From positions 192,001 through 256,000 of the IMG/VR virus record IMGVR_UViG_3300028886_000035: a stretch of 64,000 bases of DNA, one strand, 5' to 3'. The position numbers were made by a program, and so were the translations under genes. This DNA is from a virus (lineage: Duplodnaviria > Caudoviricetes). This document shows, piece after piece, positions 41,175 to 46,039 of the stretch (within the stretch, counting starts at the first letter, position 1; each line of letters starts with the position of its first letter). The notes beneath the pieces are model-generated. The model ran no database searches and was not told the origin of the DNA. It saw only the letters and a program-made list of their open reading frames with translations.

Positions 41175-42263
41175 TTAATCAATAACTCTTACTCTACGTG
41201 TATGCAATTTTAAATTTTGCTTGCAATTTTTCCATTGAATAATTTTCTTTTTCTTATTATCAATGTTATCTACATATTTTCGGAAAAAATTATAAGCAGC
41301 ATTAATATCTGCATTTACATAATTATTATCTTTTGTTCGATATAATCCACGATGTACGCGCCTACCAAAGTGTTTATCTCTTTGCTTTACACTTTCATCA
41401 TCATAAAAAGAGCATTGTGAACTATAATCTTCTGCAATACAAGAATACTCCCATTTATTTACTTTGCAAATATGCTTAATGTTTTTTACAAACAAAGACA
41501 TACCAAATGCAGTAATATTGTCTCTTTTATAATCCATTCCCATAAATGTATGATATGACAATGATTTTTTTGTTGGAATTTTACCCATCAAAATAAAATC
41601 TATACCGTTATCAATACAGTATTGTTTTACAATATTTGATGCTTTTTCACAATATGTTCTCAAATAATGATAATGATTGTGCTTTATTTTATCAATCTTT
41701 TTGGATTCAGAATTAATTCCTTGTAAAAAATTAATTTTCTTTAAACAATAATAATCATATGCTTTTAATTTTTTACCATCGACTAAAAACGAATCTCCGA
41801 AACTTGTCACACAAGCTCCCAAATTATCTACCCCAACATCTATAGCAATCATATGATGTTTTCCTGATTTGCCAATCTCCAAGTCTAAATAATATTCCTT
41901 ATTTTTGTACATAATCCATGCAGACAAAATATTTATTTTGTTAGTATCAATATCAAATGGAATAATTAAATTATTTAATTCAATCTGATTATTCGTAAAC
42001 CTATTTGGATTGATATAGATATTACGATACCTGTATTTAACCTCTTTATCTGCCTTTGTAGCTCGTTTAATCGTTCTTATGGCACATTCTTTATGCAATC
42101 GTTCAGGAACAAAATCTAAGTACCTTACAGACGTTTGAAAAGGCTCTTTATGACTTTGTTTCCATAGATATGCTTCATGATATAATTGCGAATTATCTAA
42201 AAGCATATTCTTAATTTGTTGTTTTTGATAATTATCCAAATTTAATTTAAAAAGTTTATGCAA
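41175..42263 (-). CDS. tnpB: TnpB-family RNA-guided RuvC nuclease (orphan, divergent)
   Basis: IAIDVGVDNL, EDYSSQCS, GRRVHRGLY, NADINAAYN; no tnpA and no IS ends adjacent. Confidence 0.85.
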   Translation of the reverse strand: MHKLFKLNLDNYQKQQIKNMLLDNSQLYHEAYLWKQSHKEPFQTSVRYLDFVPERLHKECAIRTIKRATKADKEVKYRYRNIYINPNRFTNNQIELNNLIIPFDIDTNKINILSAWIMYKNKEYYLDLEIGKSGKHHMIAIDVGVDNLGACVTSFGDSFLVDGKKLKAYDYYCLKKINFLQGINSESKKIDKIKHNHYHYLRTYCEKASNIVKQYCIDNGIDFILMGKIPTKKSLSYHTFMGMDYKRDNITAFGMSLFVKNIKHICKVNKWEYSCIAEDYSSQCSFYDDESVKQRDKHFGRRVHRGLYRTKDNNYVNADINAAYNFFRKYVDNIDNKKKKIIQWKNCKQNLKLHTRRVRVID

Positions 42264-42460: not shown

Positions 42461-42961
42461 CTAGAAACCATATTTTTCACACAAAGGTTCTAAATCATAT
42501 CTTGCACTTTTTCCTTTAGAAAAATTAACTGCTTTTATTATTGGCATATTTTGTTTCAATATTTGATATACACCTAATCTTTTTATACGCTTACCTAAAA
42601 TAGCATGAGCGTTATTCTGTTCTGCAAGCATTGTTACATAAAGAATACAAAATAATTTAGCTACAACTAAAAAATCTTTCTTATTGTACGTTTCTGCTAT
42701 ATTACGAATAGCTAACCAATGCTGACTATTGATATTTATGCCAACCATATTATAAACTAAAATAAAATCATTATATACTTTATCTATTCCATATTTATCT
42801 GATAATTGTTTCAAGCAAGTAAAATAATCTATATCCTTTATTGCATAGTTATTTAGTTTAAACATAAACCCATCGAATTTTCCTCTGCATTGATAAATAA
42901 ATGAACCGTCAGGAAATCTCAATATCGGTTTTTGTGATTGACCTATCTGAATTTCTTCCAA
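42461..42961 (-). CDS. conserved hypothetical protein
   Basis: GKFD, MLAE, LGKRIKRLGVYQIL. Confidence 0.6.
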   Translation of the reverse strand: MEEIQIGQSQKPILRFPDGSFIYQCRGKFDGFMFKLNNYAIKDIDYFTCLKQLSDKYGIDKVYNDFILVYNMVGININSQHWLAIRNIAETYNKKDFLVVAKLFCILYVTMLAEQNNAHAILGKRIKRLGVYQILKQNMPIIKAVNFSKGKSARYDLEPLCEKYGF

Positions 42962-43909: not shown

Positions 43910-43987
43910 TTATTAGTTTTTGTTTCCCTAATTTTATGTTAGGTACTTATGTCAATCACCACGAAAAGGTACTAATAATAGATTGAC
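43910..43987 (-). ncRNA. HDV-like (theta) ribozyme after tRNA-Gly
   Basis: P1 GTCAATC/GATTGAC, P2 TATTAGT/ACTAATA, P3 ACC/GGT, 7-nt L3. Confidence 0.8.
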
Positions 43988-44060
43988 GGAGCGGTATGTG
44001 AGAATCGAACTCACAATTTCAACTTGGAAGGATGATGTTTTACCATTAAACCAATACCGC
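43988..44060 (-). tRNA. tRNA-Gly(TCC), ends in CC without the terminal A
   Basis: cloverleaf; 3' TCC runs into ribozyme G1. Confidence 0.9.
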
Positions 44061-44064
44061 ATTA

Positions 44065-44138
44065 TGGGTGCAGGAAGTAGACTCGAACTACTAACGAAAG
44101 TTTATGAGACTTCCATGTTACCTTTACAATATCCTGCA
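44065..44138 (-). tRNA. tRNA-Met/Ile2-type (CAT)
   Basis: cloverleaf, CCA; identity class uncertain. Confidence 0.8.
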
Positions 44139-44140
44139 TA

Positions 44141-44216
44141 TGGCTCACCAGGTAGGAGTCGAACCTACGACCCAATGATTAATAGTCATTTGTCCCCCCG
44201 ACTGGACTGCTGGTGA
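44141..44216 (-). tRNA. non-canonical tRNA-Asn(ATT)
   Basis: AATGA-CTATTAA-TCATT anticodon arm; C at position 8. Confidence 0.7.
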
Positions 44217-44217
44217 A

Positions 44218-44304
44218 TGGTGGGCAGAGTTGGATTTGAACCAACGTAGACATAAAGCCACCAGATTTACAGTCTGGCTCCTTTAGCCACTCGGACACCT
44301 GCCC
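44218..44304 (-). tRNA. tRNA-Tyr(GTA)
   Basis: cloverleaf with variable arm, CCA. Confidence 0.93.
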
Positions 44305-44315
44305 ATATTTTAGTT

Positions 44316-44388
44316 TTATCAATTTTAGTTTCCCTTATATCAGGTACTTATGTTATCCACCCCGTAAAGGTATTGATAATAGGATAAC
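44316..44388 (-). ncRNA. HDV-like (theta) ribozyme after tRNA-Glu
   Basis: P1 GTTATCC/GGATAAC starts immediately after CCA; P2 TATCAAT/ATTGATA. Confidence 0.82.
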
Positions 44389-44464
44389 TGGTGACTCCTG
44401 CCGGGCTCGAACCGACGATGACAGGATGAAAACCTGTTGTCTTAACCAACTTGACTAAGGAGCC
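44389..44464 (-). tRNA. tRNA-Glu(TTC)
   Basis: cloverleaf, CCA. Confidence 0.92.
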
Positions 44465-44533
44465 AGATAAATGATTTTTAATCATTTATAAATTTTTCAT
44501 CATTATAAGATTTTCACCTTATTTTGATGATAA

Positions 44534-44610
44534 TGGTCCGCCCCCTGGGACTTGAACCCAGAACCTATCGTGTATAAGACGCTTGCTTCAACCAATTGAG
44601 CTTCGGGCGG
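44534..44610 (-). tRNA. tRNA-Ile(TAT)
   Basis: anticodon loop CTTATAC; CCA; some stem mismatches. Confidence 0.78.
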
Positions 44611-44640
44611 ATTTATAATAAATTTTATATTATCAACATA

Positions 44641-45180
44641 TTATACATATTTAAATGTATATCCATAATAAGATTTTCGTACACCTTTTAAAATTCTATA
44701 TACACTTTGTTCTGCACTATGATAACAAACCCCTAAATTCTTACATAAAAAATCTCTTATCATAGTAGCTATACAATCATAATGTGCTACAAGGTTTCCT
44801 GTTTTATAATTATATACATCAATCTTTTTTGCAATAGGATTTTTACTGCCAATAAAATTTCTTAATGTACTAACACTATGTTGCATATTTTCTTTCGCAG
44901 TAACCCATTCCAAATTACAAGCTCTATTATCAGTTTTTATTCCATTGATATGATTTACTTGTAATCCTTCTTTATATCCTTTACAAAACATATAAGCAAC
45001 AAGTCTATGTATAAAAACAATTTTTGTCTTTTTATTTACATAAAAATTGACATATAAATATCCCTTACCACTAGTAAATACCTTTAATAGTTTATCATTT
45101 AAATCTGTGATAATTCCATTATCGTATATTTTATAATTTGGATATTTTTCATTAATCTTATACATAATTCCATTACCCAT
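44641..45180 (-). CDS. free-standing HNH endonuclease in the tRNA cluster
   Basis: IHRLVA, VNHINGIKTDNRACNLEWVT. Confidence 0.92.
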   Translation of the reverse strand: MGNGIMYKINEKYPNYKIYDNGIITDLNDKLLKVFTSGKGYLYVNFYVNKKTKIVFIHRLVAYMFCKGYKEGLQVNHINGIKTDNRACNLEWVTAKENMQHSVSTLRNFIGSKNPIAKKIDVYNYKTGNLVAHYDCIATMIRDFLCKNLGVCYHSAEQSVYRILKGVRKSYYGYTFKYV

Positions 45181-45191
45181 TTTAATTGTCT

Positions 45192-45265
45192 TATATCAGT
45201 TTTAGTTTCTCTTTTTCAGATACTTATGATAACTACCACGTAAAGGTACTGATATATAAGTTATC
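45192..45265 (-). ncRNA. HDV-like (theta) ribozyme after tRNA-His
   Basis: P1 GATAACT/AGTTATC one nt after CCA; P2 TATCAGT/ACTGATA. Confidence 0.82.
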
Positions 45266-45266
45266 T

Positions 45267-45343
45267 TGGGGTGGTTGACAGGATTTGAACCTGCAATAAC
45301 TAGAGCCACAATCTAGCGCGTTAACCATTTCGCCACAACCAAC
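45267..45343 (-). tRNA. tRNA-His(GTG)
   Basis: cloverleaf with G-1, CCA. Confidence 0.92.
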
Positions 45344-45753: not shown

Positions 45754-45840
45754 TGGCGCGAATGGAGAGAATTGAACCCTCACGGTATTGCCACCCTAGG
45801 ATTTTAAGTTCCATGCGTCTGCCGATTCCGCCACACTCGC
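45754..45840 (-). tRNA. tRNA-Leu(TAA), second degenerate copy
   Basis: paralog of 45348-45434; anticodon-stem mismatch, G discriminator. Confidence 0.7.
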
Positions 45841-46039
45841 ATTATTTGATTTTCTCTTTTGTAAGATTTATCTCAACCTTACTTCTTTATTATATCAAAT
45901 CAATCGCTATCTGTCAAGTGCTTTCTTGATTTATTTTTTTTAAGAAGTAAAATATCTTTATCAACCTTACTCATTTATTGTATCATGTATCCAATCATTT
46001 GTCAAGCACAAAATTTTTTAAATACATAAAAAATCTAAA

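Follow-up and report, generated by a model that had tools for sequence, protein, structure and literature searches.

Three predicted theta-type ribozymes at tRNA 3′ ends in a phage tRNA operon and their virus-enriched subfamily

Theta ribozymes and the three elements of the tRNA array

Theta ribozymes are a recent discovery and are defined by a strict motif, in which a two-pair P1.1 is combined with a minimal P4. They are minimal, tRNA-associated ribozymes of the hepatitis delta virus (HDV) type, found in gut Caudoviricetes. Here we analyzed a stretch of 64,000 nucleotides (nt), hereafter the window, which covers bases 192001-256000 of a 281,186-bp IMG/VR virus record (IMGVR_UViG_3300028886_000035; Duplodnaviria, Caudoviricetes; 28% G+C, rated 98% complete), and found on its minus strand three related elements, each placed at the 3′ end of a tRNA gene. 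We consider it likely that these are theta-type, HDV-like self-cleaving ribozymes within a phage tRNA operon and that they cut tRNA 3′ trailers.

Four pairs of a tRNA and its theta ribozyme have been reported to cleave in a Mg2+-dependent manner in vitro, an activity abolished by a C-to-U exchange (Kienbeck et al. 2024, Nat Commun 15:1559, PMC10879173), and genes for CCA-adding enzymes are 250-fold enriched in theta-bearing phages (PMC10879173). Among the examples listed in the tables of that study, a typical entry reads, in order, P1, J1/2, P2, ACC, T, CC, ACGT, GGT, P1′, GG, GTAACG, CTAA and P2′ (PMC10879173). The elements described here share with theta ribozymes the strand order P1-J1/2-P2-P3-L3-P3′-P1′-(P1.1′)-P4/L4-J4/2-P2′, a P1 and a P2 of 7 bp each, a P3 of ACC/GGU, an L3 of the form U-N-N-W-C-G-U and a J4/2 of the form C-U/A-A-A-(N), in which the extra nucleotide is optional. 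They also share a predicted cut that coincides with the 3′ end of a phage tRNA to within 0 to ±1 nt, and a CCA-adding enzyme encoded in the phage genome. Where theta ribozymes have the identities RCC, U..WCGU, GGY and C-N-A-A-(N), these elements read ACC, UUUWCGK, GGU and C-W-A-A-A. With HDV-like ribozymes in general (HDV genomic and antigenomic, CPEB3 and drz; RF00094, RF00622, RF02682), they have in common the nested double pseudoknot, a cut placed 5′ of the first P1 nucleotide, a catalytic C that opens J4/2 and precedes N-A-A, and an L3 with a conserved U and CG.

The three elements follow a single layout: P1 (7 nt), J1/2 (3-4 nt), P2 (7 nt), ACC, UUUWCGK, GGU, P1′ (7 nt), AUAAGUA, a P4 hairpin, GAAA, C-W-A-A-A and P2′ (7 nt). 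In all of them the helices P1, P2, P3, P1′, P4 and P2′ succeed one another as in the HDV nested double pseudoknot, and every copy pairs at 7/7 positions of P1, 7/7 of P2 and 3/3 of P3, with a P4 of 3-5 bp. Element 1 (43911-43987, minus strand) lies directly 3′ of tRNA-Gly and scores 70.4 bits (E ~2e-11 to 3e-11) with R1, a covariance model of the family described below. Its parts are P1 (43987-43981/43957-43951), P2 (43977-43971/43917-43911), P3 (43970-43968/43960-43958), L3 (43967-43961), J1/4 AUAAGUA (43950-43944), the P4 hairpin (43943-43927), GAAA (43926-43923) and a candidate catalytic C at 43922. Element 2 (44317-44388, minus strand; G1 at 44388, candidate catalytic C at 44328; 74.7 bits, E ~2e-12 to 4e-12) directly follows tRNA-Glu with its encoded CCA and ends 12 nt short of tRNA-Tyr. 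Element 3 (45194-45265, minus strand; G1 at 45265, candidate catalytic C at 45205; 63.8 bits, E ~3e-10 to 7e-10) follows tRNA-His, its CCA and one further A (45266). A search of the phage's own genome with R1 at E <= 1 returned these three copies and no fourth.

A first-pass annotation of the sequence had placed three homologous elements with 7-bp P1 and P2 helices in the interval 43910-45265, which holds the elements together with four tRNAs and an HNH gene in between. It had read P3 as ACC/GGT, L3 as TTTWCGK and the segment before P2′ as GAAACWAAA; all of these are found at those places on the minus strand. Its assignment to the theta type agrees with the fields of the published theta descriptor available for comparison, namely fold order, P3, L3 as U-N-N-W-C-G-N, J4/2 as C-N-A-A and placement at a tRNA end (PMC10879173).

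Covariation and core architecture

To characterize the family, we relied on a 17-base core pattern that contains no P1, P2, P4 or J4/2 sequence. It matched 60 IMG/VR loci, the conserved core recurring in about 57 loci of IMG/VR viruses, and in 64 of 71 pattern matches a P1 partner with at least six of seven pairs stood just upstream, with the same downstream architecture then following. The covariance model R1 was built from 16 members and encoded only the nested helices P1, P3 and P4, leaving P2 and P1.1 unpaired. Searched against the window and the pattern-seeded IMG/VR loci, it gave 84 matches, 69 of them distinct, including divergent members that lack the exact pattern.

Pairing in the family was extensive. 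Overall, 89.7% of cells were paired, compared with 56.6% after shuffling, and none of 500 shuffles reached the observed value; sliding the partner strand by one to three columns lowered pairing to 34-50%. Pairing reached 97.5% in P1, where every one of the seven positions showed four to five pair types; P3 was paired throughout (100%) and P4 at 98.4%. Compensatory changes occurred at every P1 and P4 pair, and 19 of 21 pairs overall showed double-sided changes. P2 was ~72% paired despite register slips (J4/2 of 4 or 5 nt) and a frequent A/A at its P3-proximal position, which is seen alike in the subfamily and in listed theta sequences.

The same pattern was found at 29 loci in bacterial assemblies. 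Six of these, all from gut-associated assemblies, matched the covariance model, and the remaining 23, which are probably chance occurrences, did not. A match to the pattern is thus not enough to satisfy the model, and viruses are strongly enriched among the carriers of the family. Bacillus phage G, the nearest cultured relative by tRNA BLAST, had no covariance-model match in the 24 kb around its tRNA cluster. Taken by their match to the model, the three elements belong to a widespread, virus-enriched subfamily of predicted theta-type ribozymes.

These counts also bear on the explanation that the likeness is an artefact of chance or repetition, with one spacer duplicated into three copies that have no RNA function. 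The region is AT-rich and the copies share ~60% of positions, as such an origin would allow; yet around an identical core the P1 and P2 sequences are unrelated between copies and nevertheless complementary within each. Moreover, the pattern ACCTTTNCGNGGT-N7-ATAAGT, matched three times in the window against 0.00 expected, was absent from all 100 shuffles, the 69 distinct relatives covary, and most bacterial pattern loci fail the model. The covariation already refutes this explanation, to which we give practically no weight.

One departure from the published motif concerns P1.1. In the listed theta examples this helix is CC/GG (or UC/GA, GC/GC), and a two-pair field is present in every one of them, whereas none of the three copies has such a field: their P1.1 fields read UU and AU, which leaves one pair and a U/U. 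Across the subfamily the one pair is U-A, C-G or G-C, followed by U/U. L3 position 3 covaries with the first nucleotide after P1′ (U-A in 57, C-G in 9 and G-C in 2; 100% paired), and both columns are fixed by invariant neighbours. Such exceptionless covariation suggests that P1.1 exists as a single Watson-Crick pair. The first-pass annotation had called the elements a variant with no G-C P1.1; the variant holds, while P1.1 appears to be present rather than absent, in the form of one covarying pair (U-A here) beside U/U. The second canonical pair gives way, in 67 of 69 members, to U and U, which either oppose each other or let the U of L3 pair with the following purine (A; G in some) across a bulged U. 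CPEB3 likewise has a weak, one-pair P1.1. Our literature search found no description of an HDV-like phage ribozyme with an unusual P1.1, and the core ACC-UUUACG did not occur in the searched parts of the theta supplementary tables (PMC10879173).

P4 differs as well. Listed theta ribozymes have an L4 of 5-8 nt, a field that became shorter as the theta motif was refined, whereas here a P4 hairpin of 3-5 bp, and up to much longer, stands on AGUA...GAA(A), so that 20-25 nt separate the P1.1′ field from the catalytic C, compared with 5-8 nt in those examples. The 5′ side of the hairpin's base is an invariant AGUA, and its 3′ side is GAA (43 of 49 pattern-derived members) or AAA, followed by A and then C. 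The order AGUA-hairpin-GAA is that of the sarcin-ricin loop itself, and to our knowledge no other HDV-like ribozyme carries an AGUA/GAA module at the base of P4. Four sequences can form the sarcin-ricin (bulged-G) motif, and both AGUA/GAA and AGUA/AAA are among them (PMC1865062). The likeness to this motif, also called loop E, extends to the AGUA strand, the closing helix and the GAA strand, and the only variant in the family, AGUA/AAA, is itself motif-compatible (PMC1865062); the difference is that the module is here inside a ribozyme P4, directly before the catalytic C. P4 would therefore appear to be seated on a sarcin-ricin-type module, whose three-dimensional form we infer from this agreement.

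The candidate catalytic C of the three copies is followed by AAA or UAA. When P2′ was located by complementarity alone, AAA-C-N-R-R stood directly before it in 33 of 37 distinct matches, and the C was never replaced by A, G or U. This blind location of P2′ mirrors the decoy control of the theta study (PMC10879173). Across the family, the first position of J4/2 is an essentially invariant C.

tRNA 3′ ends and the proposed cuts

All 15 tRNA genes of the 281-kb genome are located in the window, on the minus strand. Their ends were taken from ARAGORN and the Rfam tRNA model, and discriminator positions were read off the latter. Fourteen of the 15 genes encode CCA. The sole exception is tRNA-Gly(UCC) (43988-44060; Rfam 68 bits), which ends U73-C74-C75 and reads C-C-G after the discriminator, the G being the first P1 nucleotide (G1) of element 1 in place of A76. 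tRNA-Glu(UUC) (44389-44464) ends in an encoded CCA, with the predicted cut exactly after A76, and in tRNA-His(GUG) (45266-45342, with G-1 at 45343) the encoded CCA (45269-45267) is followed by the extra A before the cut site. The predicted cuts, 5′ of G 43987, 44388 and 45265 on the minus strand, would hence lie behind U73-CC in tRNA-Gly, A73-CCA in tRNA-Glu and C73-CCA-A in tRNA-His, at offsets -1, 0 and +1 from a complete CCA; relative to the ARAGORN ends the offsets are 0, 0 and +1, within the ±5 nt of a tRNA 3′ end used to recognize theta ribozymes.

The first-pass annotation had foreseen the same three ends, and they agree with both tRNA predictors. It had also attributed the missing A of tRNA-Gly to the ribozyme, an explanation consistent with the 14 CCA-encoding genes and with a CCA-adding enzyme in the phage (see below), and had seen no suppressor tRNA in the window; ARAGORN found none there and none among the tRNAs of the whole 281-kb genome. 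In these respects the setting differs from that of theta ribozymes: CCA is encoded in only 4.5% of theta-linked tRNAs (PMC10879173), and here there is neither a suppressor tRNA nor any sign of stop-codon recoding in the 281-kb genome. The phage uses the standard genetic code, and together with CCA-encoding tRNAs and predicted cuts at -1, 0 and +1, this would make tRNA trimming by ribozymes separable from stop-codon recoding. A separate observation concerns tRNA-His, whose encoded G-1 pairs with C73, although a U1-C72 mismatch sits atop the acceptor stem (45271 / 45342-45343, minus strand).

Adjacency to tRNAs extends to the family. In 20 of the 69 distinct members, the first nucleotide is no more than 5 nt away from a tRNA 3′ end, most often at 0 or -1, and eleven isoacceptor types are involved; the predicted cut falls after the discriminator of CCA-less genes in some, and after an encoded CCA in others. 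Canonical CC/GG theta cores were present on three of the same loci, and on the two that were read (L006 and L032) they lie beside other tRNAs, which speaks for one and the same function of both builds. Apparently, then, this role is also served by a widespread second build, whose P1.1 has one pair and whose P4 base is of the sarcin-ricin type. Rfam misses this build, and the published descriptor, with a P1.1 field of two pairs, probably overlooks it as well; tRNA-linked ribozymes in large phages are therefore probably underestimated in both number and range. The subfamily is also a natural test case for the minimal P1.1 that an HDV-like active site requires, and for the role of a bulged-G module next to the catalytic C. 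As a side observation, an 11-kb stretch of L006 (IMGVR_UViG_3300029797_000018) holds 20 tRNAs, at least six subfamily members and one canonical theta-type core, and would make a small, naturally occurring test set.

From this agreement of fold, active-site residues and tRNA ends we infer that the RNA is cut, where exactly it is cut, and that healing and CCA repair follow, and propose the following course. The three elements would be transcribed as part of the phage tRNA operon and would fold into the nested double pseudoknot P1-P2-P3-P1.1-P4, whereupon the C that opens J4/2, with Mg2+, would cut co-transcriptionally, immediately 5′ of the element's own G1. The upstream tRNA would be released with a 2′,3′-cyclic phosphate, tRNA-Gly ending in CC, tRNA-Glu in CCA and tRNA-His in CCA plus A. 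The ribozyme would remain on the downstream RNA, be it a spacer with the promoter region, a precursor of tRNA-Tyr or the mRNA of the HNH gene; the cut by element 3 would separate tRNA-His from the latter. The tRNA ends would then be healed, trimmed and rebuilt, with A76 of tRNA-Gly most likely added by the phage's own CCA-adding enzyme or by that of the host. The scatter of offsets fits a system that rebuilds the end afterwards and does not need an exact cut.

The same scatter, in which exact CCA registration is not enforced, could also point to active ribozymes whose selected role is downstream: to make a 5′ end or segment the operon, for example by freeing the HNH mRNA with a structured, 5′-OH leader, while the tRNA 3′ end is a by-product re-trimmed by the host. 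Element 3 stops 13 nt short of the start codon (ATG) of the HNH open reading frame (ORF), element 1 ends 7 nt before a promoter-like site, and 49 of the 69 distinct members have no adjoining detectable tRNA. We regard this reading as quite unlikely. The cut lies within a few nt of a tRNA end in the three copies and in 17 further distinct relatives, with no fixed distance to a downstream gene, and G1 has taken the place of an encoded A76 in tRNA-Gly, tying the element to the tRNA end. A downstream role and tRNA maturation are, moreover, not mutually exclusive.

Several observations weigh against trailer cutting by self-cleaving ribozymes. Across the family, the first P1 pair is C-G (30), G-U (15), G-C (13) or A-U (10), not the canonical G1-U37 wobble of HDV-like ribozymes; with many members starting C1-G or A1-U, the HDV G1 rule does not hold family-wide, although the three copies here do have G1-C. 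A tRNA whose CCA bears a cyclic phosphate cannot be charged until it is healed, which looks wasteful unless an enzyme for healing is at hand, and none was securely identified in this phage. Ribozyme-free tRNAs mostly lie 1-8 nt from the next tRNA, and the three ribozyme-bearing ones are followed by the promoter-like site (Gly), tRNA-Tyr (Glu) and the HNH endonuclease gene (His), but a ribozyme is also lacking at six further tRNAs of the array, which have long trailers and no other tRNA directly behind them. A rule that ribozymes occur where no tRNA directly follows thus holds only partially; the covariance model (E <= 1) found no degenerate copies in the 69-nt Ile-Glu spacer or in the trailers of Thr, Leu, Arg and Lys.

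Three further adverse points would suit an HDV-like fold without self-cleavage, in which the elements act as structured spacers (an exonuclease stop, a site for a processing protein or a protective 5′ structure) and host RNases make the tRNA 3′ ends. First, P1.1 is here reduced to one A-U pair and a U/U, weaker than in any tested theta ribozyme. Second, no HDV, hatchet, twister, pistol or other ribozyme family reached its Rfam gathering score in the window; the sole match at E <= 10 was HDV-F-prausnitzii on element 1, the copy at tRNA-Gly, at 18 bits against a gathering score of 44. Third, predicted stability is marginal: nested minimum free energy folding, which does not represent the pseudoknot and hence carries little information on it, recovered P1 and P4, yet in this AT-rich sequence the fold was not unusually stable (z -0.6 to -1.5 relative to shuffles). 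In addition, AGUA/GAA is classically a motif for protein binding and tertiary contacts (PMC1865062). We nevertheless find such a spacer unlikely. The C opening J4/2, C-N-A-A, the U...CG of L3 and P3 are conserved as in active HDV-like ribozymes, the first P1 nucleotide stands at the tRNA 3′ end in 20 distinct members, which a spacer would not require, and canonical theta cores occupy the equivalent position by other tRNAs on L006 and L032. The elements are thus very probably active cutters of tRNA 3′ trailers, as far as conservation and placement can tell.

Healing enzymes and the surroundings of the array

The phage encodes a CCA tRNA nucleotidyltransferase of 436 aa outside the window, at G000:277606-278916 of the whole record. 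It comprises a PolyA_pol head and RNA-binding domains, with PRK13299 as its best NCBIfam match, and showed no HD domain. A CCA-adding enzyme was found in this genome and in two of the five other ribozyme-bearing records, a co-occurrence that is suggestive, not universal. No RNA ligase of the PF09414 family, which is enriched in theta phages, was detected in this genome.

As for healing, the first-pass annotation had pointed to a kinase-HD protein, encoded at 54279-55724 (plus strand; 481 aa). This protein has an N-terminal P-loop kinase domain (AAA_33 above cut-off), weak polynucleotide-kinase matches and a C-terminal LLHDVGK motif. Its HD domain scored 17 bits against a cut-off of 22, and several HD models touched residues 257-330 below threshold; PDB matches were insignificant, and the five other ribozyme-bearing phage records contained no homologue. 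On these grounds we dropped the protein as a dedicated healing partner and treat the link as conjecture: the hints are weak, although by its domains the protein may be an RNA end-healing enzyme. Its domain order would be the reverse of that in the HD-Pnk family.

These enzymes raise a more elaborate, rather improbable possibility, in which the phage gates tRNA-Gly, -Glu and -His through dedicated end-healing and CCA repair, with the CCA-adding enzyme that it encodes and possibly the kinase-HD protein as agents, and AGUA/GAA serves as a protein or tertiary docking site that lets cleavage be regulated. If so, the subfamily would be a structurally distinct, regulated class of HDV-like ribozymes and not an always-on trimmer. 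With its standard code, CCA-encoding tRNAs and cuts predicted at -1, 0 and +1, this phage also makes the healing step, in which the cyclic phosphate must be removed before charging, directly testable.

The promoter-like site downstream of element 1 (43904-43876, minus strand) is of the sigma-70 type, TTGACA-17-TACAAT with an upstream TG (11/12 in a consensus scan, as a consensus match only). It is upstream of tRNA-Cys, and by this position element 1 would close one tRNA unit. Two more near-consensus sigma-70 promoter-like sites with TG extensions were seen at 45889-45917 and 45977-46005 (minus strand; 12/12 and 11/12), upstream of tRNA-Leu at 45840. These two matches suggest host-type transcription of the tRNA units. 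The HNH endonuclease ORF downstream of element 3 (44641-45180, minus strand; 179 aa) matches Pfam HNH_3 (E 9e-12) and, by BLAST, phage HNH endonuclease genes.

Elsewhere in the array, ARAGORN predicts a tRNA-Asn at 44141-44216 (minus strand) with the anticodon AUU in a C-U-A-U-U-A-A loop. An A at tRNA position 34 is unusual outside tRNA-Arg(ACG); this anticodon would read AAU, in a phage of 28% G+C, by a plain Watson-Crick pair. Just downstream of the array are an OrfB_IS605 (TnpB-like) ORF (41175-42263, minus strand) and a DUF7004 protein (42461-42961, minus strand).

Finally, the commonest member of the subfamily (P1 CUCUCAA or CUCCUAA, first pair C-G) has no detectable adjoining tRNA and lies 160-250 nt downstream of a suppressor tRNA with the anticodon UUA or CUA. 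It occurs on IMG/VR contigs of 100-280 kb (L003, L004, L007, L014, L021, L024, L026, L032, L035, L041, L055, L057 and L059), where it is always preceded by GCGGUGCCU-N-UA, and may end an unannotated structured RNA in recoded phages.

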